Of a stretch of 64,000 nt of DNA, positions 5,673 through 22,267 are shown piece after piece. Each line of letters opens with the position of its first letter. Position 1 is the stretch's first letter. Below the pieces are notes generated by a model. The model was not told where the DNA came from. It saw only the letters and a program-made list of their open reading frames with translations, and made no database searches. Made by a program: the position numbers and the translations under genes. Source of the stretch: a virus; the IMG/VR virus record IMGVR_UViG_3300031669_000007, positions 28,631 to 92,630 of that record; one strand, given 5' to 3'.

Positions 5673-6245
5673 TTACTCAATAATTGCTGTATAATCTTCT
5701 TTAATGTATGATGAACCTGTCTTAAACATTGGCCAGTCAGAAAAATCGCCAGTATTTTCTATCATAATACGCCAATCCGTAGATCCACCACTACTGTAAA
5801 AATTATTTAATGTATCAATATCAAATGGTTCATTCTGCCCAGCTTTGATATTATGCCATTGTTTCTTAAATCTTGATAATCCCTTAACTACTTCTTGCAT
5901 ATCAGGAGAATGTATCTTACCCAAAAATAATGGGTTTTTCGCCAATCTTGATTTATAAAACCAGAGCATTTTAGAAAATATCTTTTGTCCTCTATATTCT
6001 TCTTTAACCCAAATATCATCGACTATGTTCTTATCATTCAATGAAGTATATGCTATTAGTTGATTCCTGTACCATAAAGAATAATAGTCATTATATTGTC
6101 TAACTTGATATTGTTCAATATCTGCGATATATTTCCCGTGTGTTAGCCACAACTCAGAGTGTTCTTCCCCAAACTTTTTTGCAAGGTTAGAATAATCTGG
6201 ACCTCGCCAAGGCATTTCGCTTATAAATTCTATGGATCTCATCAT
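5673..6245 (-). CDS. GNAT-like acetyltransferase with N-terminal tag MRSIEFISE
   Basis: IWVKEEYRGQKIF acetyl-CoA motif A. Confidence 0.65.
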   Translation of the reverse strand: MMRSIEFISEMPWRGPDYSNLAKKFGEEHSELWLTHGKYIADIEQYQVRQYNDYYSLWYRNQLIAYTSLNDKNIVDDIWVKEEYRGQKIFSKMLWFYKSRLAKNPLFLGKIHSPDMQEVVKGLSRFKKQWHNIKAGQNEPFDIDTLNNFYSSGGSTDWRIMIENTGDFSDWPMFKTGSSYIKEDYTAIIE

Positions 6246-6254
6246 GTATTTATG

Positions 6255-6965
6255 CTAAGAGAGGCGATAGAACTTCTCAACCCTCGCCAACCATTTTTCT
6301 ACATAAATATCCCACTCATCGCCTTCGACCACCCACTGTTGATACTCACATGCTCGACTACACATTAAGATAACGCCAGTGCGTATATTTGTTTTATGTA
6401 CTTCGTTGTGTGCCATTGCATAGGCAACAAGCTGAGTCTTATAATCCTCAACCCACTCGTCCTTTTTAGGCTTATTGGTCTGTTTATAGTCGAGAATTGA
6501 CTCTTTTCCGTTCCAAATACCAGCCAAATCTGTTGACCCTGCATAGAGTCCTGGATAGTAAACGGGGACTTCCGTTCCCCATATCTCGTCCATATGAACT
6601 AGGCCCTTTTCTATAATTTGTTGTGCCATTGGATGAGCAATCTGTTGAACAGTGTTTGTTCCTGGGGCTTTGGATTCACCCAAGCAATATTGTTCGAGCA
6701 TCTTATGCATCGTCGTTCCAACTCCGGCTGCTTCTGTTGTGATAGTTTGGGCTGCTTGATGTCCTACTCTTTTACGCCAATTTTGTAGGGCTGCTTTAGA
6801 TTCCTCAGACTTGGTCTTATCTAAGATAGTTGTGACCGAGGGGAGTTTGCTACCGTCAGGAGTATCATATAATCGTTTGCCATCTACTATGGCTCTGGAC
6901 ATTGCTTGATACGTGAATTTTTCTACAATCGGTATTTGTTTTTGTGGGTTAGTTATAAGTGTCAT
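6255..6965 (-). CDS. PD-(D/E)XK exonuclease (RecB/Cas4/MGME1-like)
   Basis: LPSVTTIL, GTTMHKMLE, EVPV..YAGSTDL..ILDYKQ, QLVAY. Confidence 0.88.
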   Translation of the reverse strand: MTLITNPQKQIPIVEKFTYQAMSRAIVDGKRLYDTPDGSKLPSVTTILDKTKSEESKAALQNWRKRVGHQAAQTITTEAAGVGTTMHKMLEQYCLGESKAPGTNTVQQIAHPMAQQIIEKGLVHMDEIWGTEVPVYYPGLYAGSTDLAGIWNGKESILDYKQTNKPKKDEWVEDYKTQLVAYAMAHNEVHKTNIRTGVILMCSRACEYQQWVVEGDEWDIYVEKWLARVEKFYRLS

Positions 6966-7003
6966 GCATTAATTGTATAACAACATACCATCAAAAAGCA
7001 AGT

Positions 7004-7426
7004 TTATTGGCGATTTTTTGCTGCGCTTTTTGCCATATTCGAAACTGTTTCTTCCGAATCTTGTTCCGGCGACGTGTGTTCTTCACCGCTATCTTCGCCG
7101 TCGCCAGTATGCTCTTCATCGGAATCTTCATCCGAATCAGATGCAAGCTCGATTGTATCTTTATTGAAGGTTTTGATTAGGTCTTTTACTGCGTCATTGT
7201 TTTCGAATGCGTCAACAAGTGCATTATAATCGAATGTAGTATCGCCAGCGTTCTGAACCAATTGAATCAAGCTATCGGTGCGTAGTTTTGCAGATAGTTC
7301 TTTATCTTCAGAACGCTTCTTTAAGAACATAAGAACAGGCATAAGATTTGAAGATAGTGTATCTTCGCCGCCACCTAATTGATCTTCTGCTGATGCATCT
7401 TCAAATACTATTTCTCTTATTTTCAT
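7004..7426 (-). CDS. acidic putative internal head protein (tag MKIREIVFE)
   Basis: N-terminal tag; D/E-rich tail. Confidence 0.6.
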   Translation of the reverse strand: MKIREIVFEDASAEDQLGGGEDTLSSNLMPVLMFLKKRSEDKELSAKLRTDSLIQLVQNAGDTTFDYNALVDAFENNDAVKDLIKTFNKDTIELASDSDEDSDEEHTGDGEDSGEEHTSPEQDSEETVSNMAKSAAKNRQ

Positions 7427-8157
7427 TAACGACGCTCTCTACCAAGTGATTCCGGACCACCTGCGGCTGCATCATCTGCGCCAAATTCATCTGGAGGAGC
7501 TTCACCGCCAAACTCATCTGCGCCGCCCATTTCGTCTGGAAGTCCTGCACCAGGCATACCTTCTGCTCCTGCTACGCCCGACATATCCATTGGTTCTTCT
7601 TGAGCTTCGCCGGTTAATGCGCGAGCTGCGCCGTCTACGCCATCGCGTGATTGGTTAAGTTGTTGTGATAATGTTCCTAATACTTGTCCTACTGAGTTTT
7701 TGAATTGATCTGCTTGTGCTGCGCCAATCTGATCACGGATAGTGTCAATAAGTGCAGGAAGCTGTTCGTTCTGTAGTTTGCCTACTTTTTCGATCATGTC
7801 TTGAACTGTGTCAACCATGTCTTTTGCTGCAAGAATAGCTTCTGACTTTCCTAGCTCGCCTTCTTTTAATTTACGCTTTGTTCTTTCTTTTGATTCTACT
7901 AATTTAGTTGCATCAATGAAGCGGGATAATCCTTCAAAGACAATAAGCATTTCTAAATACTGCGGGTCTTGTTCAGCTGTATGGATTAGGCTGCTTTTAC
8001 GGATAGCATTGACTGCCTCCATAATCTTATCACGCATTGCTTCTGCTTTTGCTAGTGTTAGAGCTTCATAATTGATTTTGAATCCAAAACGTGACTCGGT
8101 CACTTTGTTTAGTTTCTTCATTGATGGCTTGTTTTTTGTCATATCTGTCAGTTTCAT
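7426..8157 (-). CDS. putative prohead core/scaffold-like coiled-coil protein
   Basis: coiled-coil, acidic G/P/E tail, LVE/LKE candidate cleavage sites; TAAATA upstream. Confidence 0.5.
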   Translation of the reverse strand: MKLTDMTKNKPSMKKLNKVTESRFGFKINYEALTLAKAEAMRDKIMEAVNAIRKSSLIHTAEQDPQYLEMLIVFEGLSRFIDATKLVESKERTKRKLKEGELGKSEAILAAKDMVDTVQDMIEKVGKLQNEQLPALIDTIRDQIGAAQADQFKNSVGQVLGTLSQQLNQSRDGVDGAARALTGEAQEEPMDMSGVAGAEGMPGAGLPDEMGGADEFGGEAPPDEFGADDAAAGGPESLGRERR

Positions 8158-8210
8158 GTTTGTGGTTTCCTATTAAAAACGCTTAATGTATTTATACTCA
8201 ATTAAATAAT

Positions 8211-8717
8211 TTAAGAAAGTTTTCTAATTAATCGCTTCACCGCTGCAACATTGTTCTCTAAATCTTGTTTAATTAATCTAAGTTTACCTTTTGTTTCTTC
8301 ATAGCGGCTTGAGTATAAGTCTATCTTAAATTGATCCTTGGCCGCATGAGCAGCATCTAATCTAACCCTGAATATAGACTTATCCAAGTCAAGTTTCCCT
8401 ACATATAAATCTATTCTATATAATTCTTTTGCGGCATCTACTCTGCCCAAGTGCATTAAAGAACAATAGAAAATAGCACTTCTCTTATCAGTGAACTCTA
8501 ACTCTTCTACACGCCAACATATATCTGACACCTTCTCTACTTTATATGTTGCAACGAGATAGTCTCCATTCTGAAGTAGCATACAGATGGGTAACTTGCT
8601 CTTTTTTTGAAGTTCTAGCAGTTCGTTTCTTGTCCACTCAGTTACGCGATGTAAGCCGTATGCCTCAATGACGTCTAATTTTTTATCGGATTTTTTTAAG
8701 ATAGATTGTTTTGCCAT
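8211..8717 (-). CDS. hypothetical protein
   Basis: ORF track; likely start MAKQ. Confidence 0.55.
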   Translation of the reverse strand: MAKQSILKKSDKKLDVIEAYGLHRVTEWTRNELLELQKKSKLPICMLLQNGDYLVATYKVEKVSDICWRVEELEFTDKRSAIFYCSLMHLGRVDAAKELYRIDLYVGKLDLDKSIFRVRLDAAHAAKDQFKIDLYSSRYEETKGKLRLIKQDLENNVAAVKRLIRKLS

Positions 8718-8892
8718 CGTTTTTAGTTCTCTTAAGGACATCTTTCTTAACTAGGCTACTGGCAATTAGCTGTTCTCTTGGATTTAGACTCTTCTTAAAT
8801 ACTCCGCCTGTCTCATTAAATTTCGACAATACTTCCCATTCCTCATTATTAAGTGGTATAGAAATATTGTTTAATAACTCGACGATTTTAAT
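8683..8892 (-). CDS. 69-aa protein absent from the ORF track, probable ATT start ((M)KIVELLNNISIPLNNEE...)
   Basis: GGAG about 7-8 nt upstream of ATT; no in-frame ATG/GTG/TTG back to the stop at 8980; fills the gap between two genes. Confidence 0.65.
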   Translation of the reverse strand: MKIVELLNNISIPLNNEEWEVLSKFNETGGVFKKSLNPREQLIASSLVKKDVLKRTKNDGKTIYLKKIR

Positions 8893-9478
8893 TTTGTATC
8901 TCCCTGTTCTTTTTACGTTTAAGCCCTGTCCTAATTTTAACCCAGGCTTCTTTGCGTTCAGCCGACCATTTCTTGTCTGTCATTGCCTTAGCTATTTTCT
9001 TGCTTGTTTCTTTTAATTTAGGGCTCGTTTCTTTAGTAAGTCCGGTATTCCAGGACGTTGATACACCAAGCTCTTTTTTAAGTTTATTGTTCTTCTTTCT
9101 TGATTCATTCAGATTACGGGTATGTTCAGCAGTGCGTGGTTTATGATAAGCATGTTTACTGCATATTCTACCCTTCTCGCCACCACCGTTTAATCCATTT
9201 TCAGGTCTTAAATTAGCCCAATTTTTTGATTCAACTATCTTTTCTTGTTCTGAAAAAATCTCAGCAAATTTTTTGCATTCTTCTTTATCATAAAATAAAC
9301 AGAACCAAACTGTTTCAACATATTCTTTACCGTGTTTCATATTATGATTTTGCCAATATTTTCCAGATCCAAAATATGTAAGCATTTCTTCATAATTAGC
9401 AACCGTTTTGCCAAAATACAACTTGCCGGTTATGCGGTGTCTCTTTATATAAAGATATGTTGGTTTAAACTCTCTCAT
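8888..9478 (-). mobile_element. GIY-YIG-like homing endonuclease (paralog of 916..1563)
   Basis: PTYLYIKRHRITGKLYFGKT..YFGSGKYW..WANLRPENGL; WNTGLTKET. Confidence 0.8.
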
Positions 9479-9909
9479 GACTGTAGCCAAGGCTCGATAA
9501 AAATATTCTTAATGGCACCGTATGGGTGAAAGATGGGTAATATAAAACGTGCCGTCTCATCTAATCCAGTGATGACTGGCACTTGCTCAAAATCGGCATT
9601 TAGTGCAGACATTGGCTTGCCAGGCAAGTCATATACGCCCTCTGCTTCAATGGCCCAAGACCACTGCCATATAGTCTGGACTCCCGAGTAGAATTCTCCG
9701 AAATTATAAAAATCTACGTTGTCTTCGAATTTCTGCGGTAATTTGATATTCAAGGGTTGTGTTTTTAATCCAATACATTGTAGCACTGTTTCCCAGTTGC
9801 GCTGCTGGTTTCTTGCGATATCTTCTGTGTCAGAGCTTCGTGTTACTCCGGTAGCAGTTATATCTACTAAGGAATAGCCTATAAAGAATTGTGGATTCGC
9901 CGCGCTCAT
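9475..9909 (-). CDS. conserved jumbo-phage protein
   Basis: SLVDITATG..RNQQRNWETVLQ; TAAATA immediately upstream. Confidence 0.55.
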   Translation of the reverse strand: MSAANPQFFIGYSLVDITATGVTRSSDTEDIARNQQRNWETVLQCIGLKTQPLNIKLPQKFEDNVDFYNFGEFYSGVQTIWQWSWAIEAEGVYDLPGKPMSALNADFEQVPVITGLDETARFILPIFHPYGAIKNIFIEPWLQS

Positions 9910-9939
9910 ACAGTATTTAGCTTATGAAGTTATAGTCAC

Positions 9940-9971
9940 AAAAAAGCCAGGTCTGACCTGGCCTGGCTTTT
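9940..9971. terminator. bidirectional-looking intrinsic terminator
   Basis: AAAAGCCAGG-N10-CCTGGCTTTT downstream of 9995..10417. Confidence 0.8.
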
Positions 9972-9994
9972 AATGTGTGGATTCTAATTAACTA

Positions 9995-10417
9995 TTAAGC
10001 TAACTTGAAACCTTCTGTGCTTGAAACTGTGAAACCTACTGGCACAATGTTAGCAACGTTTGCAGTTGTAGATAACACCGGCGAATTCAATGCTGTTGCA
10101 AGAGTTGTGTCAGTGAAGCCTGTTGCTTCAACTAACAAGCTGATTACTGAACCGTCAACTTGATACATAGTTGTTGTTGATTCAACACCAACTCTGCGTA
10201 GTGTTGATTCAACAACTCCGCCCACTCCCATTTCAACTGTCAAATCTACGTTTGAAGTAAGTTTGAAAGCTGTTGGGCTTTTTGTAAGACCAGGTGCAAT
10301 GATAATTCCAACTGAATTATCACCTGTCATACCGATATCGAAGTTAACAACACCGTCTGCATCTCCGTGTACTCTTGTTGCGCCTAATGGTTGATTATTG
10401 TTGATTGGTAATGCCAT
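9995..10417 (-). CDS. probable abundant virion (decoration-like) protein
   Basis: T/V/G/N-rich, strong AGGAG, TAAATA upstream, own terminator. Confidence 0.55.
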   Translation of the reverse strand: MALPINNNQPLGATRVHGDADGVVNFDIGMTGDNSVGIIIAPGLTKSPTAFKLTSNVDLTVEMGVGGVVESTLRRVGVESTTTMYQVDGSVISLLVEATGFTDTTLATALNSPVLSTTANVANIVPVGFTVSSTEGFKLA

Positions 10418-10522
10418 AATATTTCTCCTAAAGTAAGTGGGATCTATACGATCCGCATATACTTATTTATACGAGTGGAGAAAAATCGTCGAATTTCGAT
10501 CTGAAGATTTATCCAACTGCAT

Positions 10523-11782
10523 CTACTTTTTAATGACCTTACCGTCCTGTACGTATAGGAATCGTCTGATCCATTCTGCGGTTGATTCTAGTATTTCTCT
10601 CTCATCCCTAGTGTAGAAGTGATCTGATGACATCATATGTACAATGACGTCGTCTATATCTTTAATCATTGGCACATCTTCCTCATCGTTCATATATATT
10701 ATGGCTGCTTCTTTAAGCTTATCTACACCTGGGTTAATTGCATCTAATATCAGTTCATACTCTCTTTTTGCGTCGTCGTTATAATATAAATAACCAGGTG
10801 CATTTTCATAATCTACGTCACCGTTTTCGTCGACGAACCCTTCTTCCTGAAGCCAAGTATAATAATACTCGTCGTTCACTTCCCAGTCCGTCAGTCTATC
10901 GTCTGCTGACTCTGATGCATATTCACTGATCTGGTCAATGATCCTATTTAATACATTATCATATGCAAATATAATCATCTTAGAAAAATTAGGGTCAAAC
11001 TGACGTAAGTTATTAATTAAATTACCAAAGCGTTTAGTTAATATATCAATTGGATCAACTGGCTCATCCTCTTCGTTCATAAACTGACCTGATGCAGCAT
11101 GAACCTGATATTTTTCACCGTCGTATGCTGGCTGCTTAGGCAGAAGAATAAACATTGGTCCCTGGCGATTATATCTGTCAAACATGTTATTATTCGTCGC
11201 TGCCGTGCACCAGGTTGTGCCCTGACCATAGTAGCAGGCTGCATCAGTATCTTCTGGCTGTACAATTCTGACCGCTGCGTTACTATATATCTCTTTTGAT
11301 TTGCCCTTAGGTATTGCTGTCTGAGCAGCGGTCTTTAGCTTATCTACTAATTCTGGTGTATGGGTAATCGTATATAGATCCTTAAAATTAATTCTATTTA
11401 TGTCTCTGAGTTCGACCGGCAATATCTTTCTAAGTTTCATTTGTGCGAAGGTTTTGAGCCAGTCTGCGCCCTTTGATAATATGTCCTCTAGTGCCACGCC
11501 GCCGTTAGCATAAATTTTAGCCAGCCATGGTGTGTATTCTTTGTGTGTGGTAGGGTCTGCATTCTTCAAGAATTCAAGTATAAGATTTGAAATATGAGAA
11601 ATAGTCTGCTGGTCGAGTTCTATTCCCTTCATGTCTGGTGATAGTAATAAAGATATCTGCCTATCTAAGGCAGGAGCAGGCATATTCCTTTCGTCTTTAA
11701 GCATGGCATTGACCAGTTTGCGCCCAAAGACCTGTATTGTCTTAGCTTGATTATATTCTACTAGAAATTCATTGGCTCTCAT
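10523..11782 (-). CDS. tagged protein (MRANEFLVE) with a YG-x-GTxWCT (PcfJ-like) domain
   Basis: ADPT..KEYTPW; AACYYGQGTTWCTAA..FDRY; KYQVH..QFMNEED. Confidence 0.6.
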   Translation of the reverse strand: MRANEFLVEYNQAKTIQVFGRKLVNAMLKDERNMPAPALDRQISLLLSPDMKGIELDQQTISHISNLILEFLKNADPTTHKEYTPWLAKIYANGGVALEDILSKGADWLKTFAQMKLRKILPVELRDINRINFKDLYTITHTPELVDKLKTAAQTAIPKGKSKEIYSNAAVRIVQPEDTDAACYYGQGTTWCTAATNNNMFDRYNRQGPMFILLPKQPAYDGEKYQVHAASGQFMNEEDEPVDPIDILTKRFGNLINNLRQFDPNFSKMIIFAYDNVLNRIIDQISEYASESADDRLTDWEVNDEYYYTWLQEEGFVDENGDVDYENAPGYLYYNDDAKREYELILDAINPGVDKLKEAAIIYMNDEEDVPMIKDIDDVIVHMMSSDHFYTRDEREILESTAEWIRRFLYVQDGKVIKK

Positions 11783-11783
11783 C

Positions 11784-12434
11784 TTATGCAACCCATGGGT
11801 CGACGATCACCGGGAAGTCTGATCCTCTAGACATTACGTTGTCGTTATGTAAATCCCAATACCAGTTCTTCTTGTCGGATATATTGAATAAATCAAGTAT
11901 AGTAGACAATAATAAAGCGGTCTTCTCACGTCCAAGATTCTTGGTTAATTGATTAAACCATTTTTCTCCATCGTGCTCTGCCTCTGTGCCCAGTTCGTGA
12001 AACACATTTGATGCATTTAGTCTATGAGCTGACCAAGAAATATTTACGCCTGCTCTTGCGACTGCTAACCCAATGACATCATTTTCATTGAGTTTCTCCT
12101 GACGAATCTGTAGATATGGGTTACCATTGAACATAAAGCTCTCAAACCCATAGAACTTAGGTAGAAAAGGATTGTTTTGTCTATCCATGCAATACTTGGC
12201 CCAGAAGAAGAACATTTTTTGCCCTTTAGTAAATTGCGGTTTTCCCGACGTCGTTAGACCTTTCCCAAACTGAGTTCCAAATATCTTTAAGACTTGACCC
12301 GTGCTTGGTTCTAAGAATGCCATCTGATCGACTCCCTGACCCAACTTCTTATATCCTTTTGCCCTAAGAATCTTAGTAATGTCTACGTGATTATCGCTAT
12401 ATTCATCTATTTGTTCTATTTCGATTATTTTCAT
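11784..12434 (-). CDS. protein-kinase-like enzyme (tag MKIIEIEQIDE)
   Basis: LGQG Gly loop, VLK, FLPKFYG, QEKL, DLHNDNVM, VIVDP. Confidence 0.8.
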   Translation of the reverse strand: MKIIEIEQIDEYSDNHVDITKILRAKGYKKLGQGVDQMAFLEPSTGQVLKIFGTQFGKGLTTSGKPQFTKGQKMFFFWAKYCMDRQNNPFLPKFYGFESFMFNGNPYLQIRQEKLNENDVIGLAVARAGVNISWSAHRLNASNVFHELGTEAEHDGEKWFNQLTKNLGREKTALLLSTILDLFNISDKKNWYWDLHNDNVMSRGSDFPVIVDPWVA

Positions 12435-13030
12435 CTTATTCTCTTTGTAGCAACTAGTTCCATATTTTTAGCATCTAATAGTTCGGGACTGTATTCTCCA
12501 CCGTAATCCCAGGTATCTGTGTCTTTTGAATGAGTATATTCTGGATCGCGCATATCTACATTGACTGGCTTCCCGTTTAACCATCCGTGTATCTCAACAT
12601 TTTTATGATACTTCTGTAGTTGTTTCCACACTGCGTGGCCACCAGGCGATTGGCTTGATGCAACTAATGTCTTCCCTAATTTAGTAATTAAAAAGGCATA
12701 GAAATTATGAGCCTTGAGTGTATTATTTTTATTAATAGCGTATAGACTTATATTCGTTAATATATTATTATCTTCGTTTGCCCCAACTACTAAATCAACT
12801 TTTCCGTCTGGCGACACAGCATAATATCCATGCCAATCCCCGCCCTGAGGATCTTTCTCAAAATATACTTTGTGACCGTCTGGCATCTTAGCAATCTGAA
12901 CACCGCCAATCTTTAGAAGTTGCTTTTCGTTAGATGGATCTTCCGGGTGCCATTTCCCCTTACGTTTAGTAATATAATCAAGCTCTTCAACCTCGTCAAT
13001 TGTAGTCTGAATTACTTCATTGATTTTCAT
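12431..13030 (-). CDS. tagged protein (MKINEVI), GNAT-like fold suspected
   Basis: FYAFLI...SQSPGGHAVWKQL. Confidence 0.5.
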   Translation of the reverse strand: MKINEVIQTTIDEVEELDYITKRKGKWHPEDPSNEKQLLKIGGVQIAKMPDGHKVYFEKDPQGGDWHGYYAVSPDGKVDLVVGANEDNNILTNISLYAINKNNTLKAHNFYAFLITKLGKTLVASSQSPGGHAVWKQLQKYHKNVEIHGWLNGKPVNVDMRDPEYTHSKDTDTWDYGGEYSPELLDAKNMELVATKRIR

Positions 13031-14523
13031 AAATCTAATTCCCAATAGTTTCCGCTGTCATTATGATCAACGGACTTAAATCCTGCTTTCTTAAACATAT
13101 CTTTTGAACCCACATTAGTCCATTCCGTGTATGCCTTAACCGTGTAATAACCATGTGCTTTTGATTGCTCAACTATGTATTTAAGCAATTCTGAGCCAAA
13201 CCCTTGTCCCGTAGGTGTTGCGTCTATGCGATTAATATATGCAATTCCAGAACTATTATCTAAATCTAACGTGGCTGATCCGCGTTTTGCTTGTGTTTCG
13301 CCTATTCTATCAATCCAGTTCTTAGCTGAGTTTGTTATGTGTGCATTTAAGAATACTCTCAGATTCCAGTCGCCTTTCTCTTCTATGTCTAATCGTTCTG
13401 TTTCTGACGATTCTTTTATTGATATCGACTTAATTTTACGAACTATTTCCCAGGTGTTTAACCCCTCCGATATTGTTAATTTAGATTTAAATTCAAATTC
13501 AGGAAAATACTTACTGATAGATTTGGCAAATCTATCATATAATTTATTTCGACTTGGTAAATCTATCTTACTTGAAAAGTAAATAGCTCCTATAGATTTA
13601 TTTTCTCTGTCAAAATCAACGAGAATCAATGATAATATTTCTTTAATAGTTGCAAAAATTCTAAATGCATCCCCTGTATTTTCTATATCCTGACTCAAAT
13701 CCGACTTTTCTTCTCCTTTAATCAATGAAAATAAAACATTGATTACATTCTCATTCCCTCTAAATTCTTTTGCATATTTGACGGTAACAAGATAAGCTAA
13801 TCCCGAATCAGTCTTAAATTTATAAGATTTTTTCGGCATTAAAGAATCTGAGTTATTGCTGTATTCGGGGGAATACTTAAACGGATACGGAGCATCGGCT
13901 AACTCGGTTAGCATTTTATTATCTTCTAATACAGTAGATGACTCTGTAATCTTAAATTCTGATTTATACCACAAGTAGATGTCTGCAGAAGAACAACGCT
14001 TGTCGAACTCTCTGCGTAAGATATAATAAATTTGCTGTTTATCTGCTCTCGATAAATCATCCCAGTTACCAATGTCGCGACGCAATTGCCTTAATAAGGA
14101 ATTAGACGATAGCTTTAGATAATCTTCTAATCTCCAAAAGAATGTAACATCGTCGTTGTGAGATGATTTTGACTTAGTCTTAGATGCCAATACACCCAAG
14201 TATCTATTAATTTGGAATAACGGAATGCTCACGCCGATATGAGTTTTAATATCCTTCTTAAATGTGTCTTGGTTATTTAATACAGCAAGCAAATTGCCCA
14301 GGTCAGAGCCTGAATAATGCAGTTGATCATAGGTATTATATTTTAGTGTATCTCTTGCGTAATCTGCTGTATAATTTGGTTTGTAATGTCTTATTACTTC
14401 TAACATCATAAACATCAAAAAGACTATCTGTGCTATTTCGTCAGCAGACATGCCTTTAATGTCCTTTACTCCATAAAACATGCGAGCTTCGACGAGAGAA
14501 TCAATGAAAGGTAGTAGTGACAT
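13027..14523 (-). CDS. multidomain protein with a C-terminal GNAT domain
   Basis: INRIDATPTGQGFGSELL..N..SKDMFKKAGF; internal ITE/LTE/IKE linkers. Confidence 0.65.
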   Translation of the reverse strand: MSLLPFIDSLVEARMFYGVKDIKGMSADEIAQIVFLMFMMLEVIRHYKPNYTADYARDTLKYNTYDQLHYSGSDLGNLLAVLNNQDTFKKDIKTHIGVSIPLFQINRYLGVLASKTKSKSSHNDDVTFFWRLEDYLKLSSNSLLRQLRRDIGNWDDLSRADKQQIYYILRREFDKRCSSADIYLWYKSEFKITESSTVLEDNKMLTELADAPYPFKYSPEYSNNSDSLMPKKSYKFKTDSGLAYLVTVKYAKEFRGNENVINVLFSLIKGEEKSDLSQDIENTGDAFRIFATIKEILSLILVDFDRENKSIGAIYFSSKIDLPSRNKLYDRFAKSISKYFPEFEFKSKLTISEGLNTWEIVRKIKSISIKESSETERLDIEEKGDWNLRVFLNAHITNSAKNWIDRIGETQAKRGSATLDLDNSSGIAYINRIDATPTGQGFGSELLKYIVEQSKAHGYYTVKAYTEWTNVGSKDMFKKAGFKSVDHNDSGNYWELDL

Positions 14524-14531
14524 CTATATCC

Positions 14532-15086
14532 TTATGGCATGTTGGGCCAAGTTAAGTTATTCTTGGTAATATTTTGTTTTGCTTCTAGTATCTGCAAATT
14601 CGCGAGACAGTGTAATCCTTGTACGAGCGGCGAGTTAAGTGGCACAATGTGATCTACGTGATAAGACACACCTGTTAATTCAGTCAATGCTTTTGCTTGA
14701 GAATATAATGCCAAAATCTGATCTTTCTCGGCGATCGCCCATTGAGGTGTCGCCTGTAGCTTAGTTGCTCTTCTATTTGCGTTTTTTGCGTTGATCTTAT
14801 CTGGATTGTTCTTTCTCCATTTTCTATTTGATTCTCTATGAAATTCTGGATTATTGCGCCTGAACTTATTCACTGATTCTTTGCTTCCTTCCGGATCTGC
14901 TATATATCTTTTATGAGCCGACTTCGTTTTATACAATGCAACCTTGTCTAAGTTGGCAGATTTCCATGCATCGTTTTCAGTATTAATACAGATTTTGCAT
15001 CTTGTCGTTAAGCCGCACTTATAGCCTTTATTTTTATAGAAAGAATCAAGCGATTTACTTTCGTTACATTTTGTGCATGTTTTCAT
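14532..15086 (-). mobile_element. HNH homing endonuclease
   Basis: CTKC..CKIC; YHVDHIVPLNS..VQGLHCLANLQIL..N..K. Confidence 0.88.
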
Positions 15087-15142
15087 AATAAGTATTTATC
15101 TTAGTGATGGCTCCAGTCTGGAGCAACATACGGTGTCTCTGG

Positions 15143-15919
15143 TCATGTAATAGGAGTGCCGCCAACGCGAAGTGTTTCTAATAGATCAGATCTAACTATA
15201 ATACACGGTCCGCCTATCCACAATTCTTTATCTCGCATTCCACCGCCAGCAAATTCTTCTAAGTCATATAATTGAAACCCGGTATTTTGTGGAGCCATTG
15301 CTTCTTCAATTTCTGGTAAAAAATCCTTAGGCTCAATTGGTTTAATTTTATTATCTTTAATTAAGTAGTTCAGTTCTCTCGCGAAGAAATCAGATTGAAC
15401 TTCTTTAACCATTGAATTATAGTCCTGAGATAATCTCAGGTCTTCAAGAAATTCATTTAGGTCTGGAAAATCAAGACCACTATAGACAAACGGTAGATCA
15501 ATTCGTGTTTCCCATATATCAATGGCAGGACACACGGCAACCTTAACTCCTCTTGCTGGAAATACGGCATAGGTTGCAGCCGACCACGGTGCTCCATGAG
15601 CATAATCAGATGCTCTGTCAAATTCAGTTGAACAAATTATGCTTCTACTTCTTTTTGGCCATCCATTGAAATAAGGAGAATTATCCATTAATTCTGTGTA
15701 ATAGTTAGATGTATTTTGTGATTGTCTAACGCCTGTGCTTGGATAAATCTTTAATATCTCCTGATTATGATTGTTAAATCCGCGCCAGATAGGTTCTCTA
15801 ATTAGTTCATCTACTACGGGGCAGAATTGCCTTAGTAATGTCTCTACCTTGTCGGTGTTGATTACTTCTTTTTCGTAAGGTTTAACCTCTGCTTCAGATA
15901 TTATCTCATTGATTTTCAA
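15143..15919 (-). CDS. ADP-ribosyltransferase-like protein (tag MKINEIISE)
   Basis: IWRG...RSRSIICST...A..Y...KELWI, an R-S-E-like layout. Confidence 0.5.
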   Translation of the reverse strand: MKINEIISEAEVKPYEKEVINTDKVETLLRQFCPVVDELIREPIWRGFNNHNQEILKIYPSTGVRQSQNTSNYYTELMDNSPYFNGWPKRSRSIICSTEFDRASDYAHGAPWSAATYAVFPARGVKVAVCPAIDIWETRIDLPFVYSGLDFPDLNEFLEDLRLSQDYNSMVKEVQSDFFARELNYLIKDNKIKPIEPKDFLPEIEEAMAPQNTGFQLYDLEEFAGGGMRDKELWIGGPCIIVRSDLLETLRVGGTPIT

Positions 15920-16677
15920 AATGGGTCATCCTCTATTGAATCATTGTCATCGTCGGCAGTGTCGTTTGTATATCCTACCGTGCTACCCGAGAAAGGATTA
16001 TATCCGGCTGCAATAGAACTGCCATTGTCTTGAAGAGGATCAGTTAATACTAATTGTATGCCAGTTGGTCCAAGCCGAATCATTATATTCCCTGCGTGTA
16101 CATCAGTGCTAAACGCTGAATTAGAGTTATATACTTCTTGAATTAACTGTATAGCTTGAATTAATTTTTCATCACTGAAAATCTCGTACATATTAATGCT
16201 TGACTCAATTCCTTTTTCAATGTCACTTGAAATATTCCACAGTAATAATTCTCCTAGACGATGGTAGGCCAGAGCTTTCTCAGTGTAAATCTTTTCGGCT
16301 ATTATCTCAACTAAGTTTTCTATCTCAGAGTTTGCTTCACTAATTGTCATTAGTTTTTCCATATTATAAGCTGGTTTAACTAATCCATCGCTATATCTTT
16401 TAAAGACAACTTCATAGACTCTTGGGAAATATGGGTTGCTTTTCATAAAAGGAGAACATGCTTTGATATATTGATAATATGCATCGTTCTTTAGATTAGA
16501 TGGCATTCTTATTTTCTTACGATACATGTGAGTATCAAGAGGATCTGGTGTCCCACGAGCATACGCCCCACCATTTGTAGTGTCGATTTTTTGTCTTTGC
16601 CCCATCTTTTCAATGTTGTATGGTTTGCTTATCGGACGCTCGACATGTATTGGTTCTATTATCTCATTGATTTTCAT
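15916..16677 (-). CDS. protein-kinase-like enzyme (tag MKINEII)
   Basis: GGAYA, YFPRVYE, MEKL, DVHAGNIM, LVLTDP. Confidence 0.75.
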   Translation of the reverse strand: MKINEIIEPIHVERPISKPYNIEKMGQRQKIDTTNGGAYARGTPDPLDTHMYRKKIRMPSNLKNDAYYQYIKACSPFMKSNPYFPRVYEVVFKRYSDGLVKPAYNMEKLMTISEANSEIENLVEIIAEKIYTEKALAYHRLGELLLWNISSDIEKGIESSINMYEIFSDEKLIQAIQLIQEVYNSNSAFSTDVHAGNIMIRLGPTGIQLVLTDPLQDNGSSIAAGYNPFSGSTVGYTNDTADDDNDSIEDDPF

Positions 16678-17802
16678 TTATGTATTCCTTGCGAAATTAG
16701 CCTGGCTAAATTGGGTGCGATTAACCAATTTAATTGGTCCTCCCTCGTCGCTAGATACATAGCCCTCACCGCCACGTGCGCCTGCAATGTGTGCGATAAC
16801 TGTTCCTTCATGTGAATCTAATTGATGAAGTATATCTAATTTTAGTCCGGTAATTAAATCGAATATATTAAATACTGCCTGTAATCCTGCTGCGTTTTGT
16901 TCTGAATAGGCAATTACCTTACCGACCATTGCCTTAGATATCTTTGGGTTAGATTGAACCCAAGAACCGAACTTAGCATATAGATTGGTTAAATCTCTTG
17001 TCTTAACCTGTGCATTGACGTATGTGTATAATAGATCAGGCAATGCTGCCATCTTTTGTTCACGCAATACATCTTCGTCAAGGAACGCATCTACCACTTT
17101 GGCATTCTTCTTAACGTATTGTGTGATCTGTTTGGCTTTTACTTTGTCTGCTTGAAGAGTAGCTTCGTTCTTAATCTCCGGGCCTAAGATGCATAATGGG
17201 CCATTGAGGTTTAGTCCTGCTGTATTCTTTAATGGAACACCGTCTGCACCCACGTCTGAATAAAAGGTGTGAACAGCCATCCCAGCTTTTGATTGAGCTA
17301 TGTGATGTCCGAGTTCAGAGTTCTTATCTACTTCATACGTTACCGTATTAGGCGTAAAGATGAATCGCTTAGTTGTTTCTTTTAGTTCGCCAGGGAACCA
17401 CATAATATCGCCAAACACAAAACCACGATAATTAGAAGGCACCGAAGCCTGAACGATAGGCCAGATTGCGACGATTTTAGCGAGATAATCTTCATCTCCA
17501 CCTTTGCTGCGCTTTTGCTTAACAAATTCTTTAGCTGATTTATATAGTCCATTGTATCCTTTCGCGCCAAATCCCGCTTTGTCAGTGAAGATGAATTCTC
17601 CATCTTCATTACGACCGAATACACAACTTGGTTTTCCATCCCATTTGATTGACAAAATATCTTTACTCTTGCTTAGACTTAATAAGTTATTAACTGCTCT
17701 GAGAGCACCAGCAGATTTTTCCCAAAAAACTAAGTCCTCGGCGTGCTGAATGCGAGCACCCTCATTGAGAACTGATTCTACTATTATTTCATTGATTTTC
17801 AT
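16678..17802 (-). CDS. ATP-dependent RNA-ligase-like nucleotidyltransferase (tag MKINEIIVE)
   Basis: SIKWDG (KxDG), GDIM, GEGYV and IKLVNR ligase motifs. Confidence 0.7.
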   Translation of the reverse strand: MKINEIIVESVLNEGARIQHAEDLVFWEKSAGALRAVNNLLSLSKSKDILSIKWDGKPSCVFGRNEDGEFIFTDKAGFGAKGYNGLYKSAKEFVKQKRSKGGDEDYLAKIVAIWPIVQASVPSNYRGFVFGDIMWFPGELKETTKRFIFTPNTVTYEVDKNSELGHHIAQSKAGMAVHTFYSDVGADGVPLKNTAGLNLNGPLCILGPEIKNEATLQADKVKAKQITQYVKKNAKVVDAFLDEDVLREQKMAALPDLLYTYVNAQVKTRDLTNLYAKFGSWVQSNPKISKAMVGKVIAYSEQNAAGLQAVFNIFDLITGLKLDILHQLDSHEGTVIAHIAGARGGEGYVSSDEGGPIKLVNRTQFSQANFARNT

Positions 17803-18544
17803 TTTTTAATCGTTCCTTTAGTAATGGCAACAATGTTTTTCTAAATTCATTCTCATTCATATGCCCTTTAACAGTATTCACTATTCTAAGACAAAAGACT
17901 AAATTTTCTGCGGCGGCGGTTTTCTCAGTAGGCCAGTTATAAAAGAATGCTTCATTGACCGAAATCTTATGATCGATTGTCCTCTTCAGCGGGTCATTTG
18001 GGTTGACTTTTTCTAATAAATTGTCATTGAATGCAATGTCGGTATAATAGCATGTGTTAGGTATTAGGTTAATTTTCTTAATTTTGTCAACCTGTTTTTT
18101 AGTCATTGACTCTACTTCTTTTCTATAATTATTAAATTCCTCATTGATTTTTAATTTTTTATAAGGTATTAAGTTTTGTTTCTTGAACCCTTCTCCGGGT
18201 CGTTGGCCATTATTAATAACGCCATATCGATTAAGCATTGATGCCTGCATTTTACTTTGTCTCTTATCATTGGTGTTTTTACCGCTAATCCCTTCATAAA
18301 CACCGCCCTTCTTCAAAATTTCTGTGATCAAATTTCGCAATTTCCCACCAAAAACTTTAGTGCTTTCTTTCTCAATAACATATTTACAACATTCAGAAAC
18401 CGAATATGTCTCTAAGTAATACTTAGCTATATAATCATTGAGAACATCCTTTAATCGTAATACTTCCTTCTGATAATCAGAACAATTTCTAAAATGAGCC
18501 GTATTTCCCTTAGGTATCTCTAATCCACAAACACATTCACACAT
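17789..18544 (-). mobile_element. putative HNH-type homing endonuclease
   Basis: CECVCG..HFRNC; MLNRYGV.N; TIDHKIS..ENL..N..KG; lacks the tag. Confidence 0.55.
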
Positions 18545-18812
18545 AATAGTTCTCCTTACTATTATTTATGCTGGATAGCGTCTTATCTAATAGAAGTTCG
18601 TTAATCTTCATAACTTCCATCCTTTCTGAGATAGGTACAGTTAATAATATTTGTTCAACTTTCTCATAATACTGATATGCGTCCATAATTCTTGGAATGG
18701 CAATACCAACACCGAGAGATATAATACCGGCAGCGGCCAATTTAGCAACTTTTGCTTTAATACTTTCTTCAAGTATTTGTGATTCTGTTAATATAAATTC
18801 GCTTGATTTCAT
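18537..18812 (-). CDS. small tagged protein (MKSSEFILTESQILEE) with a hydrophobic helix
   Basis: tag; LAAAGIISLGVGIAI. Confidence 0.55.
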   Translation of the reverse strand: MKSSEFILTESQILEESIKAKVAKLAAAGIISLGVGIAIPRIMDAYQYYEKVEQILLTVPISERMEVMKINELLLDKTLSSINNSKENYYV

Positions 18813-19567
18813 AATGTCCATCCCTCATTCTGATAATAGTGTTTAGCCAAAACAAGCCAATTTGAATTAACCACTATTGCTTTGTCTGCTATTAGCATTA
18901 TTTCGTGTGATGATCTAATGCCACCTATTAAATCTTTATTAAACTGATAATCACCGTCGATCATAAAATCATTGACATAATTATAATTATCGAATACTTG
19001 TTTCATCTTTTCTTTTAAAGAAAAAGAACTAGCGTGTTCATCTCCGTCGCCAGCTGCATCAGTGAAGTGTTCCATACTTTCATACATATCGACATAATTT
19101 CTGGACCAGCAGAAGCTAAAATTACCCATTGGTATTACCACGACGGTATCACCGTATCCAGATGCCTTAGCTTCCTTACCAAAACAAAATAACGATTGGC
19201 GTCTAATTCTGATGTTTGTTCTTTCTTCAAACCAATCATCTATTGCTGCGCTAACATTCTTGGGTGTGTCTTTTGGGTTACGGTCTTTTCTGATGTTCAC
19301 AGTGTTAAACGGATGCTCTTCTGGTATATCCATTGCCTGATGGTCAGGAATACCCACACCTCTGAATAACGGGTAATTAAACAAAGCATTCTCGATGCCG
19401 CCGACCTGAGTCAGGTATGGTTGTGATGTTCTCGTCAGAAGAGCCGCTAACTCTGACAGCGACGATTTTATTTTATTTACTTCATTTGCATCTGACCATT
19501 CGATATCATTCTCTATTTTTGCTGTGTCAGAATCAAGGTCTTCTAAGATTATGTCTTTAATTTTCAT
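18809..19567 (-). CDS. ADP-ribosyltransferase-like protein (tag MKIKDIILE)
   Basis: LFRG..RNPKDT..DDWF..RRQSLFC..YG..HEIML. Confidence 0.5.
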   Translation of the reverse strand: MKIKDIILEDLDSDTAKIENDIEWSDANEVNKIKSSLSELAALLTRTSQPYLTQVGGIENALFNYPLFRGVGIPDHQAMDIPEEHPFNTVNIRKDRNPKDTPKNVSAAIDDWFEERTNIRIRRQSLFCFGKEAKASGYGDTVVVIPMGNFSFCWSRNYVDMYESMEHFTDAAGDGDEHASSFSLKEKMKQVFDNYNYVNDFMIDGDYQFNKDLIGGIRSSHEIMLIADKAIVVNSNWLVLAKHYYQNEGWTL

Positions 19568-20232
19568 TCTGGCTCCACCAATTTCTTTAAGAATTTCTGT
19601 CGTATTACTAATGCCTTTTTACAGGAGAGCATTATTTCTGTCCCGGAAAATATCGCACCTCGAATATTGGTATCAAATCGATAATCTCCTGAATCCATAA
19701 ATTCGTTTATTCTAGCTTTGTAAAACTGTTCTGCCTCATGCACAGACATGCCAGCACCTCCGTTGGGCGGCTTGTAGTTAAATTTGCCTAATGCAACAAA
19801 TAAGTCTCTATACTGGGCAGAATATGCATAGTGGTATTCTCCCATTGGTATTACAATTAATGCACCGGTTGCCATTCCTGAATAAGAAATAGCGATATCA
19901 AATCGACCAGTGCAATGCAACGATGTCTGTCTAAATCTGACACCTACACGCTCTTGAAACCAGTCGTCAATGAGAATCTGAACTCCTTCAGGGGTATCTG
20001 TCGGAATCCGATTTTGATTTACTATAACAGTTTTGGCGTGAGAACCAGGCGGAAATTCTATTTTCTCTATTCCTCGATACATTGGATAGTCGATTATTGC
20101 AGCGTCGAATCCACCTATCTCTTGAAGATATGGTTGACATTGTTCTTCTGCGAACATTCTTATGCCAGCAAACTCTTTAAGAAGCTCTTTTTTAGTGTCA
20201 CTGTCTTCAGTAATTATCTCTTGTATTTTCAC
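19564..20232 (-). CDS. ADP-ribosyltransferase-like protein (tag MKIQEIITE), paralog of 18809..19567
   Basis: MYRG..RIPTDT..DDWF..RQTSLHCT..TEIML. Confidence 0.5.
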   Translation of the reverse strand: MKIQEIITEDSDTKKELLKEFAGIRMFAEEQCQPYLQEIGGFDAAIIDYPMYRGIEKIEFPPGSHAKTVIVNQNRIPTDTPEGVQILIDDWFQERVGVRFRQTSLHCTGRFDIAISYSGMATGALIVIPMGEYHYAYSAQYRDLFVALGKFNYKPPNGGAGMSVHEAEQFYKARINEFMDSGDYRFDTNIRGAIFSGTEIMLSCKKALVIRQKFLKKLVEPE

Positions 20233-20990
20233 TTTGGGTTCACCATCTGAGATAACGATCTATACCAGGATGGAGAACCTACTTGAATAGATTCTGGCAA
20301 GTTAATTAATCCCTTTTTGGCATCTTCTCTTGCCTGTGCTAGTTTTGCATCTCTAGCTGGGTCAGATGCCAATGCTTTCATTATTGTTTTAATGCTGGCC
20401 AGGTCTGCTGCTGTTGCCTTAGGATTAAGCAGTATCTTAGCCACAGAATCTTTGTCGTCTGCTACCACCACGCCTGTCTCTCTGTTAACTAGCTTGCCCT
20501 CAAATGGGCTGAACTTTAAGCCTAATGATTTGGCAATGCTTGAATATAATATGAATAGCTGACCGCCCTTAAAGTCTGGATCATCGTATTGTCCTGACGG
20601 ACCATGCTGATGGAACGGTGCGACTTTAGCTGCATTCGGAATGACCATAATATCTAGCTGAACAAACGTGCCATCTGGCACTGGCATACGAACGTGGACA
20701 TTACGTCCCGACAATGCGACCTGAAACCCCTCTTTCTCAATGTATTGCTTTAATGCTAATTTAGTATATTTCTCGTCTGGTGTATTAAATAACTGTGCTA
20801 ATTTACCGGCATCAACAAATACATCCATGTCACCTGACTCAACCTTATATCCAGCCGATCCGATATCTGGAATAATATTAATTCCAAATGGCATTATCTT
20901 CTGAATATCTTTAATTATTCCTGGGACATATTCTCTTTTAATTGGAGATACGTCAGGAAATACATTTCCGCCTTCATTTAATTGATGCAT
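20229..20990 (-). CDS. Pol-beta superfamily nucleotidyltransferase (LNE|GGNVF start)
   Basis: IGSAG..SGDMDVFVD..VQLDIM. Confidence 0.8.
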   Translation of the reverse strand: MHQLNEGGNVFPDVSPIKREYVPGIIKDIQKIMPFGINIIPDIGSAGYKVESGDMDVFVDAGKLAQLFNTPDEKYTKLALKQYIEKEGFQVALSGRNVHVRMPVPDGTFVQLDIMVIPNAAKVAPFHQHGPSGQYDDPDFKGGQLFILYSSIAKSLGLKFSPFEGKLVNRETGVVVADDKDSVAKILLNPKATAADLASIKTIMKALASDPARDAKLAQAREDAKKGLINLPESIQVGSPSWYRSLSQMVNPK

Positions 20991-20991
20991 A

Positions 20992-21975
20992 TTAATTCCT
21001 TTTAGCTTTACCGCCATATGTTGGAGCTAACACCTGGTTCAACGTTGGCTTGTCCTTAGGCAGTGGATCATTGACTGTTTTGTGCCATTCTTTGCCGGTT
21101 CTCGGCGTATCTAAGCTATTTTTCTTCTTTTTATTTTTTGCTTCTTCTAACTTCTCTTTCTTTAAGCGTCTGACAGCCATCTCCTTAACTGTGTATTCAT
21201 TGATCAGCTTTTTAGCTTTGTTAATTGATTCGGTCATTTCTAGTTCCTCGTTATTTGTGCTGCGATTACCGACTATGCGGTTATACAGATCTGGCCGTAC
21301 TCCGACTTTATCAGTGTGCTGTTTTGTTGCCTTAGCATAATAGTTGCCGGCCAAGTTCTTAGATATTTCATTGACTTGTGATTCTTCGGTTGGCTGCGGT
21401 TCTTGCTTAGGCCGTCTATTAGCTCTAGCTTGCATTCTTCTTTGATAGCTAGGAGCCATTTTGTAAGGAGTTTGTGGAGATGGTGGAGCAGGAATAAACG
21501 TTCCTGTCTGATTGTCGGCCATTTTCTCTAATGCCTGAACTTGTGTAGGATCGACAATTTTTTGATTTAATTCATTGACCCAACCTGCATTAGTTTTATA
21601 ATATTTTCCCTTACTTCTAGGGTCAATGATCATAAACTTTTCCCCTGGCCTTAGAGCAGGCTCCTTCTGAGGCGTCTGAGACGTCTGACCTTGAGTAGGC
21701 ATATTTGATGCTCTATTTGGGTTTGGTTTTACTTGCATCTGAGCTTGGCTTCTGGCTTGCGTAACTTCTTGGCGTTTTTGTTGAAAGTTTTTTTCTGCTT
21801 GATGACTTAAACTATGCTCTAAGTCGTGGGCGCCTAACCCCCTTGCCAGACCAGAATAGGCATTAGCGTTTCTATCAATGTGGCTACTAGCTGCGGCAGC
21901 GGCGTTAGCTGCACCCTTCTTAATAGCGTCCCATATTCCTTCGTCTAACTCACTGCTAAATTCATTGATCTTCAT
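20992..21975 (-). CDS. low-complexity tagged protein (MKINEFSSELDE), likely internal head/ejection protein
   Basis: tag; A/Q/P-rich; several xxE candidate cleavage sites. Confidence 0.55.
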   Translation of the reverse strand: MKINEFSSELDEGIWDAIKKGAANAAAAASSHIDRNANAYSGLARGLGAHDLEHSLSHQAEKNFQQKRQEVTQARSQAQMQVKPNPNRASNMPTQGQTSQTPQKEPALRPGEKFMIIDPRSKGKYYKTNAGWVNELNQKIVDPTQVQALEKMADNQTGTFIPAPPSPQTPYKMAPSYQRRMQARANRRPKQEPQPTEESQVNEISKNLAGNYYAKATKQHTDKVGVRPDLYNRIVGNRSTNNEELEMTESINKAKKLINEYTVKEMAVRRLKKEKLEEAKNKKKKNSLDTPRTGKEWHKTVNDPLPKDKPTLNQVLAPTYGGKAKRN

Positions 21976-22216
21976 TCTTGTTCACTCTCCTGACTCCCCG
22001 GGCGAACTTTGATGTGTCTTGTGCTCTGATGCTATTAAGTAATCTACGCTCTAAGTCAGCGGCTGTTTCGGGGTCATAGTTCTCCCGTATCAAATTGATT
22101 AAATTAATTGCACCCTGAATAATGTGCGTGGCGCGGCTTTCTAGTAGTTTTTCTCTATCTCGATGGACTAATAGACTATCGAGCTCATCTAAGATGCTTT
22201 TTGTTTGTTTTTTCAC
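21962..22216 (-). CDS. conserved helical hypothetical protein
   Basis: GTG start with GAGG; TAAATA upstream. Confidence 0.6.
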   Translation of the reverse strand: MKKQTKSILDELDSLLVHRDREKLLESRATHIIQGAINLINLIRENYDPETAADLERRLLNSIRAQDTSKFARGVRRVNKNEDQ

Positions 22217-22267
22217 AAGAAATGCCTCTCCCCTGGGGTTATTGTATTTATTCGGAATTGTGAATGG

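Follow-up and report, generated by a model that had tools for sequence, protein, structure and literature searches.

The DNA analysed here, called the window, is a 64,000-nucleotide stretch covering bases 28631-92630 of the 92.6-kb IMG/VR contig IMGVR_UViG_3300031669_000007. Between 5.6 and 22 kb of the window lies an array of genes whose protein products open with a common short N-terminal peptide, hereafter the tag, in front of bodies that are mostly unrelated to one another. All array genes are on the minus strand, as are nearly all genes of the contig, and they overlap start to stop. The array is flanked on one side by a primase and a DnaB-like helicase (22506-25011), and on the other by an exonuclease and a ribonucleotide reductase.

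The contig is a fragment of an uncultured giant T4-related phage, a distant relative of T4 itself. Its completeness is ~26% according to CheckV, which implies a phage genome of ~350 kb, and neither a prohead protease nor a convincing capsid gene was found on the 92.6 kb at hand. Megablast of the flagged region against 50,697 phage records returned 0 matches. At the protein level, relatives include Agrobacterium phage Atu_ph07, Salicola phage SCTP-2, Ralstonia phage RsoM2USA and a 484-kb uncultured phage, together with, for one window gene, Vibrio phage 2.275.O and T4-like cyanophages.

The shared N-terminal tag

Twelve gene starts in the array encode M-K/R-I/S/A-x-E/D-I/F/V-I/V/L-x-E or a close variant. 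A first-pass annotation of the window had listed 14 such N-termini, carried by about 14 unrelated proteins. Eleven of them are as described (starts at 6242, 7426, 11782, 12434, 13030, 15919 with TTG, 16677, 17802, 19567, 20232 with GTG, and 21975), and the one at 18812 is a variant one residue longer. The other two are weak: the protein starting at 20990 has merely a six-residue M-x-x-L-x-E leader, conserved within its own family, and the gene starting at 8892 has an ATT start codon. The bodies did prove mostly unrelated, apart from three that profile comparison identifies as distant paralogues.

The tag is specific to this locus. Both strands of the whole contig were scanned for start codons followed by at least 50 open codons, and a pattern derived from the tags themselves, and so fitted to the data (M-K/R-I-x-E-I/F-I/V-x-E), matched 12 of the 1625 candidate starts. 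All 12 are true gene starts between 5.6 and 22 kb of the window, with 0 matches in the remaining 76 kb of the contig, including the 28 kb upstream of the window. The tag is absent from the homing endonucleases inserted in the array (14532-15086, 17789-18544 and 8888-9478) and from the exonuclease, helicase, primase and ribonucleotide reductase, as the first-pass annotation had observed.

All 13 tagged proteins have an [I/L/V]-x-E motif ending at residues 6-14, compared with 11% of the other open reading frames (ORFs) of the contig. In both structure models obtained, the tag is disordered and stands ahead of the fold (residues 1-7 of 15143-15919 and 1-10 of 18809-19567), while the Pfam DUF6267 domain of 16678-17802 begins at residue 18, which places the tag outside the domain. 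A signal-peptide or membrane role was considered and set aside, the tag being acidic, amphipathic and without a hydrophobic core.

Conservation and turnover in related phages

Because the search pattern had been fitted to the tags of the contig, an independent test was made in relatives, sampled through the helicase as 80 IMG/VR loci of 587 confirmed relatives. The tag is present in 82 of 788 ORFs downstream of the helicase, but in 0 of 772 upstream and 0 of 1981 antisense ORFs. In 61 loci an anchor gene of 84 amino acids (aa) directly follows the helicase and precedes the tagged genes, of which some loci have about two and others nine or more. Five cargo genes of the window are without a homologue in any of the 80 loci, from which we conclude that the array is hypervariable between conserved flanks.

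Conservation of the tag extends over a large clade. In 64 loci found through the ADP-ribosyltransferase (ART)-like family of the array, 285 of 1182 ORFs share at least five of the eight residues at positions 2-9 with a neighbour, against 41 ORFs for the control positions 26-33. Versions of the tag differ by lineage. Several have exactly the T4 spacing, such as M-I-T-F-K-Q-F-L-x-E, and distant lineages keep a hydrophobic-hydrophobic-x-Glu pattern with different residues.

A common N-terminus could also arise without any sorting role, as a side effect of gene duplication and of cassette shuffling by recombination where genes meet, and be kept since A/T-rich early codons aid initiation in tightly coupled genes. 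The near identity of the first five to seven codons in five tags would fit such a history, as would the start-to-stop overlap of the genes, the paralogy of three window bodies and of eleven bodies in the Atu_ph07 array, and the fusions and splits between neighbouring bodies. The other tags, however, encode the same residues by different codons (ATA/ATC/ATT, GAA/GAG) and are preceded by unrelated DNA, so that the conservation is at the level of the peptide. The tag is present in 21 of 21 homologues aligned with 15143-15919, with M1 and E9 invariant at identities down to 33%, and the hydrophobic-hydrophobic-x-Glu pattern outlasts the change of residues between distant lineages. Nor does the tag follow from gene coupling, as ~170 other coupled genes on the contig are without it, or from common descent of the bodies, as it stands before bodies of different predicted folds or family matches. 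We consider an origin without sorting quite improbable.

Likeness to T4 capsid targeting

The capsid targeting sequence (CTS) of T4 internal proteins is MKTYQEFIAE. In mutants of the IPIII CTS, targeting depends on residues 4 and 7, processing on residues 8 and 10 (reviewed by Kuhn and Thomas, 2022). Other T4 head proteins begin in a similar way: in the T4 sequence, gp24 starts with M-A-K-I-N-E-L-L-R-E and Alt with M-E-L-I-T-E-L-F-D-E, and gp21 and gp22 contain L-I-E or I-A-E within their first ten residues. The window tags align with MKTYQEFIAE and with the gp24 propeptide when a length difference of one residue is allowed, and their hydrophobic residues and Glu then fall at places matching those of the T4 CTS.

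The corresponding head machinery is encoded by relatives. Two of them, G001 (289 kb, 80% complete) and G004, have a protease of the gp21 type, Peptidase_S77 (E 1e-27 to 5e-29), and a capsid protein of the Gp23 family (E 1e-99 to 6e-101). Their head genes follow the order of T4, the portal and capsid genes being separated by an acidic gp67-like and a scaffold-like gene, and a gp21-family protease and head genes also occur in Atu_ph07. The capsid proteins of all three phages have hydrophobic-x-Glu sites where T4 gp23 is cut. Further, in 56 of 61 loci the anchor gene is preceded, at a distance of 25-33 nucleotides (nt), by ATAAATA, the core of the T4 late promoter, compared with 8% of all ORFs, and the DNA around it is otherwise diverged. 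From this motif we infer that the array is probably transcribed late.

In G001 (L089-L103), CTS-like leaders recur outside the array in two more small gene groups, at about 32.5-34.6 kb and 185.6-189.3 kb. One of its leaders reads M-K-T-F-I-D-Y-L-T-E, very near the T4 CTS, and the second group is syntenic with arrays of other jumbo lineages.

Virion proteins in a cultured relative

Atu_ph07 has the same layout, with a primase/helicase (gp70), two small proteins (gp69 and gp68) and then gp67 to gp53, of which gp53-gp63 open with M-R/K-W-x-Q-L-T/N-E, the form that the tag takes in this phage. Six window genes have homologues in this phage. The protein at 15143-15919 is homologous to gp58, gp53, gp54 and gp56; those at 18809-19567 and 19564-20232 to gp57, gp60, gp61, gp62 and gp63; and that at 13027-14523 to gp64 (E 5e-9), while 20229-20990 is weakly similar to gp65 (E 5e-4). 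Electrospray ionization tandem mass spectrometry of virions detected 131 of 714 Atu_ph07 proteins overall, among them gp53-gp65, gp67 and gp68 with 3-31 unique peptides each (Attai et al., 2018, Table S5); gp68, the homologue of the anchor gene, was represented by 5 peptides and 64% coverage (Attai et al., 2018). The cluster was there called hypothetical or novel structural proteins of a whiskered virion, and the shared N-terminus was not mentioned. Virion proteomics of RsoM2USA covers ten abundant bands only and is thus uninformative on the three tagged paralogues of that phage.

These virion data bear on a reading of the tag as some other intracellular signal, for example a degron, a handle for chaperones or export, or a signal for localisation in the infected cell. 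A short, N-terminal, amphipathic peptide that is disordered in models might serve in any of these ways, yet it has no signal-peptide or transmembrane character, closely resembles T4 propeptides and stands on proteins whose homologues are found in virions, and we give such a role very little credence.

The tagged virion protein gp53 of Atu_ph07 (L002:13533-15869) is 778 aa long, and BFVD names a zeta-toxin domain in it. The window ART-like protein has its best structural match (TM 0.77) in the N-terminal part of gp53. From these matches, gp53 seems to combine an ART-like domain with a kinase domain of the zeta-toxin type.

A proposed capsid-loading tag for a changeable cargo

We interpret the tag as a T4-type tag for capsid loading and processing, the version in this lineage of the T4 CTS and head-protein propeptide, and assign this reading a probability of about 0.7. 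The array products would then probably travel in the virus particle as a variable collection of enzyme-like proteins. Transcription would start late, from the T4-late-type promoter ahead of the anchor gene; the tag, 9-14 residues long, would dock each cargo protein on the prohead scaffolding core; a gp21-family prohead protease would cut after the Glu of the [I/L/V]-x-E motif at the end of the tag; and the mature proteins would remain in the head until they exit with the DNA. The cargo delivered in this way would comprise three ART-like paralogues, two kinase-like proteins, the DUF6267 protein with ligase motifs, a nucleotidyltransferase-like protein, a basic protein, an acidic protein and several proteins of unknown fold, which may act in the host. 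The core of the earlier proposal, a portable capsid-loading tag on swappable cargo, is well supported, though indirectly, by the likeness to T4, the protease and gp23 of the relatives, the late-promoter motif, the portability seen with DUF6267 and the virion mass spectrometry of Atu_ph07.

Several points weigh against this interpretation. With no head genes on the contig, the protease is deduced from relatives whose helicases are 65% identical. The A/T-rich codons after the start could also favour translation. Much of the Atu_ph07 array is a single paralogous family, eleven of its bodies being paralogues, and the shared N-terminus could there be partly inherited. The Atu_ph07 proteome was obtained from PEG-purified particles with no N-termini reported and speaks for virion association only (Attai et al., 2018). 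Finally, arrays in some other jumbo lineages sit among tail genes.

The position of those arrays, which adjoin tail-sheath-like and other tail genes in several lineages, and the reading by Attai et al. of the Atu_ph07 cluster as structural proteins of a whiskered virion would both suit a peptide that directs proteins to some part of the virion outside the head interior, such as the tail, baseplate, whisker or a surface-docking site, in which case the tagged proteins would be structural or accessory parts and not injected cargo. The tag, however, matches the propeptides of T4 head-core proteins (gp24, internal proteins, Alt) and no tail adaptor, the prohead-protease motif ends it in every tagged protein, and the bodies resemble soluble enzymes or charged disordered proteins, not fibres. 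A non-head destination is thus unlikely in our view, if the least unlikely of the alternatives to capsid loading.

Predicted cargo proteins

The features of the array are listed in Table 1. The body labels of the first-pass annotation (ART-like, kinase, GNAT-like, PcfJ-like and Pol-beta nucleotidyltransferase) were overstated: the ART Z-scores are 4.6-6.3, the tagged GNAT candidate falls below its cut-off, and the PcfJ and nucleotidyltransferase labels are protein-atlas leads only. Pfam gave nothing for 9 of the 13 tagged proteins, and PDB sequence searches with five of the bodies returned nothing meaningful.

Table 1. Features of the tagged gene array and its surroundings (positions are those of the window)
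Feature	Position	Strand	Evidence or remark
T4-late-promoter-like motif AATAAATA	22245..22252	-	29 nt upstream of first gene of the array operon
Untagged 84-aa anchor gene opening the array	21962..22216	-	61 homologues; Atu_ph07 gp68 homologue, E 3.5e-10
Tagged 327-aa basic (isoelectric point, pI, 9.8) low-complexity protein, T4-internal-protein-like in character	20992..21975	-	5/5 homologues tagged
253-aa protein, M-x-x-L-x-E leader before conserved GGNVF motif	20229..20990	-	35 homologues with same short leader
Tagged (GTG start) 222-aa protein, ART-like fold family	19564..20232	-	BLASTP E 4e-40 to 18809-19567; phrog_11975 match
Tagged 252-aa ART-like-fold protein	18809..19567	-	Alignment A2, structure model, structural neighbours
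Tagged 91-aa protein, hydrophobic segment, internal tag-like stretch from 18611	18537..18812	-	0 homologues in 80 related loci
Untagged HNH/endonuclease VII-like gene inserted in array	17789..18544	-	phrog_1035
Tagged 374-aa DUF6267 protein, ligase-type K-W-D-G at residue 53	16678..17802	-	Pfam PF19782, E 9e-37
Tagged 253-aa kinase-like protein	15916..16677	-	phrog_15752 (T7 gp0.7-type kinase), E 8e-7
Tagged (TTG start) 258-aa ART-like-fold protein; family expanded in Atu_ph07	15143..15919	-	Alignment and structure model
Untagged HNH/endonuclease VII-like gene inserted in array	14532..15086	-	phrog_1035, E 2.6e-24
498-aa protein, differing conserved N-terminus ending L-V-E at residue 12, C-terminal GNAT	13027..14523	-	16 homologues with similar N-terminus
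Tagged 199-aa protein of unknown fold	12431..13030	-	0 family matches; 0 homologues in related loci
Tagged 216-aa kinase-like protein	11784..12434	-	phrog_15752, E 6e-7; one tagged homologue in L011
Tagged 419-aa protein, PcfJ-like weak lead only	10523..11782	-	Protein atlas
Perfect TATAAATA	10464-10471	-	Ahead of gene starting 10417
Untagged 140-aa conserved gene	9995-10417	-	Conserved in 14 related loci
Intrinsic-terminator hairpin, strong, G+C-rich, then T run	9940-9971	-	Between genes 9995-10417 and 9475-9909
Untagged homing-endonuclease gene	8888-9478	-	Inserted just upstream of small gene 8683-8892
Small 69-codon tagged gene, start codon ATT	8683..8892	-	Overlaps stop codon of homing-endonuclease gene 8888-9478
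Perfect TATAAATA	8189-8196	-	Ahead of gene starting 8157
243-aa coiled-coil protein, acidic Gly/Ala-rich tail, start 8157	within 7426..8196	-	phrog_14154 'virion structural protein', E 3e-11; 15 homologues
Tagged 140-aa very acidic protein (pI 4.2), Asp/Glu/Ser-rich tail	7004..7426	-	Tagged homologues in L062, L026, L008
Tagged 189-aa protein, sub-threshold GNAT match	5673..6242	-	Pfam Acetyltransf_1 19.5 bits

BLASTP among the window bodies links one pair only, 18809-19567 with 19564-20232, and profile comparison adds 15143-15919 as a distant homologue of that pair (98% probability, E 1.5e-13). On the evidence of sequence and predicted structure, the three are distant paralogues with a weak ART-like fold. 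Two of the bodies were modelled, 15143-15919 with a pLDDT of 88 and 18809-19567 with one of 85.7. VIA-align neighbours of the former are Arr (Z 6.3), cholix toxin (5.1) and diphtheria toxin (4.7), and the top structural neighbours of the latter are proteins of the ART superfamily (Z 6.2-3.4); the structure-alignment tool itself rates Z-scores of 3.4-6.3 as middling. Independently of each other, both models have their nearest solved structures among Arr, BC2332, cholix toxin, diphtheria toxin, exotoxin A, DarT and PARPs. An Arg in an x-R-G motif, a Ser and a Glu are invariant in both ART-like alignments (R69-G70, S155 and E222 in alignment A2 of 18809-19567), and are candidates for the catalytic R-S-E or H-Y-E residues of a pocket for nicotinamide adenine dinucleotide. 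Among viral models, the ART-like family occurs in jumbo phages only. Foldseek of the 15143-15919 model against the PDB found nothing significant, and none of the three ART-like proteins matched Pfam. Between 15143-15919 and T4 Alt, BLASTP gave no similarity.

Two proteins carry a weak kinase label, which comes from PHROG matches at E ~1e-6 together with a motif. In 15916-16677 a catalytic-loop-like D-x-H-x-x-N motif is followed by a D-P motif, and 11784-12434 has D-L-H-x-x-N and D-P motifs; neither protein has a Pfam or PDB sequence match.

The protein at 16678-17802 belongs to the DUF6267 family, its match of 127.7 bits being far above the Pfam cut-off of 27. A ligase reading would follow from its K-W-D-G motif, like ligase motif I, and its E-G-Y-V motif alone, and BLASTP found no similarity of DUF6267 to the RNA ligase of RsoM2USA or to Atu_ph07 gp66. 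This body shows the portability of the tag, as it is tagged in the window and in close relatives and untagged in Vibrio phage 2.275.O and in the cyanophages P-TIM40 and S-WAM1. In three relatives (L080, L036 and L065), ORFs of about 600 aa have one leader, then the GGNVF body and behind it the DUF6267 body, and in a fourth (L004:4819-6426) the GGNVF body is joined to the basic protein that comes first among the cargo. These fusions suggest that the fused neighbours, the basic, GGNVF and DUF6267 bodies, work together.

Adjoining the untagged DUF6267 gene, the two cyanophages encode a cytidyltransferase (L170:2692-3765 in P-TIM40 and L171:2694-3749 in S-WAM1) with a CTS-like start, M-R-F-x-x-F-I-x-E. 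Judging from this N-terminus, T4-like cyanophages may also package a nucleotidyltransferase.

The nearest named protein-atlas cluster of 20229-20990 is NTP_transf_2 (score 0.94), so that a nucleotidyltransferase-like activity is a lead only, and Pfam gave no match for this protein. For 10523-11782 the nearest named cluster is PcfJ at 0.89, below the reliability line of that tool. The tagged protein at 5673-6242 falls short of GNAT membership, with 19.5 bits against a gathering cut-off of 20.7 for Acetyltransf_1. The protein at 13027-14523 passes the same cut-off with 25.1 bits, and its N-terminus is not of the standard tag type. In its family (homologues in L008, L011, L018, L023 and L060) the N-terminus reads hydrophobic-P-F-I-x-x-L-x-E-A-R, with L-x-E at residue 12, and the C-terminal parts vary, being GNAT in the window and other extensions in relatives. 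This conserved N-terminus may be another kind of leader or belong to the domain.

Relation to known packaging systems

The first-pass annotation overstated the novelty of the array, as the principle has already been published for T-even phages. T-even internal proteins are a highly diverse set with the CTS alone in common (Rao and Black, 2010), and the CTS has been proposed as an evolutionary device for loading various proteins (Kuhn and Thomas, 2022). The array extends this principle and does not represent a new one; it is larger and richer in enzyme-like cargo than its T4 counterpart. Both systems have an N-terminal peptide of 9-14 residues with hydrophobic residues, a terminal [I/L]-x-E and equal spacing, common to otherwise dissimilar proteins, and gp21- and gp23-family head genes, which for the window phage are known from relatives; one cargo class of the array is ART-like, as is T4 Alt. 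In contrast to the handful of genes in T4, the window has 12-13 tagged genes in one operon-like array, and most of its cargo is 190-420 aa long and enzyme-like, whereas T4 internal proteins are small and basic; the window phage is also a distant relative of T4, with a genome of about 350 kb. In T-even phages, the hypervariable locus for internal proteins (Repoila et al., 1994; reviewed by Rao and Black, 2010, and Kuhn and Thomas, 2022) likewise combines conserved flanks and fast cargo turnover with the CTS alone in common, but differs in scale and cargo classes, and the window-type tag also varies between lineages.

Closest to the window is the syntenic array of Atu_ph07 (gp53-gp67), with its primase/helicase, small virion protein and tagged genes; it differs in its version of the tag and in being dominated by one expanded ART-like family. 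The heads of phiKZ-like phages and SPN3US also take up many ejection or inner-body proteins, which a related prohead protease trims after Glu, but these phages form a different group, their propeptides are mostly >100 residues long and cleavage follows an A/S-x-E motif. From MuF and portal fusions and gene context, ARTs and other enzymes have been argued to be often head-packaged (Iyer et al., 2022). In those MuF- or portal-fused effectors and polyvalent proteins such enzymes would also ride in myovirus heads; packaging is there deduced from fusion to structural domains or from gene neighbourhood, whereas the window has a short detachable tag on stand-alone proteins. The name Atu_ph07 is absent from that article, and the passages searched in it, on packaged, capsid and virion, describe no short-tag arrays. 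In the literature on jumbo phages of the Rak2/Atu_ph07 type, we found no paper describing such arrays.

Should the tag act as the CTS does in T4, sequence alone would suffice for listing the proteins brought into the cell by giant phages of a large, abundant and mostly uncultured group, and enzyme families such as the expanded ART-like family and the two kinase-like proteins would act before phage genes are transcribed. The prediction is directly testable, since Atu_ph07 is cultured and its virion proteome exists. Like the T4 CTS, the tag could also be used to bring foreign proteins into the heads of jumbo phages. More tentatively, and with somewhat less than even confidence, the tags may be a lineage-specific, evolvable address code that co-evolves with the head core of each phage and loads 10-16 fast-changing stand-alone enzymes into the capsid in a very large, mostly uncultured clade of T4-related jumbo phages. 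Such enzymes would include expanded ART-like families, kinases and ligase/nucleotidyltransferase pairs. Were this true, the injected proteome of hundreds of uncultured phages would be readable from sequence, as a counterpart of the effector repertoires of secretion systems.

Possible traces of endonuclease insertion

Two observations concern genes next to inserted endonucleases. The small gene at 8683-8892 has ATT where five relatives have ATG, and the T of this codon forms part of the TAA with which the homing-endonuclease gene stops; through the insertion the small gene may have fallen silent or been left with ATT as its start. In the 91-aa protein at 18537-18812, the second tag-like stretch, M-K-I-N-E-L-L-L at 18611, lies 24 codons before the end, ahead of the HNH gene at 17789-18544, and may be the remnant N-terminus of a cargo gene broken by endonuclease insertion.

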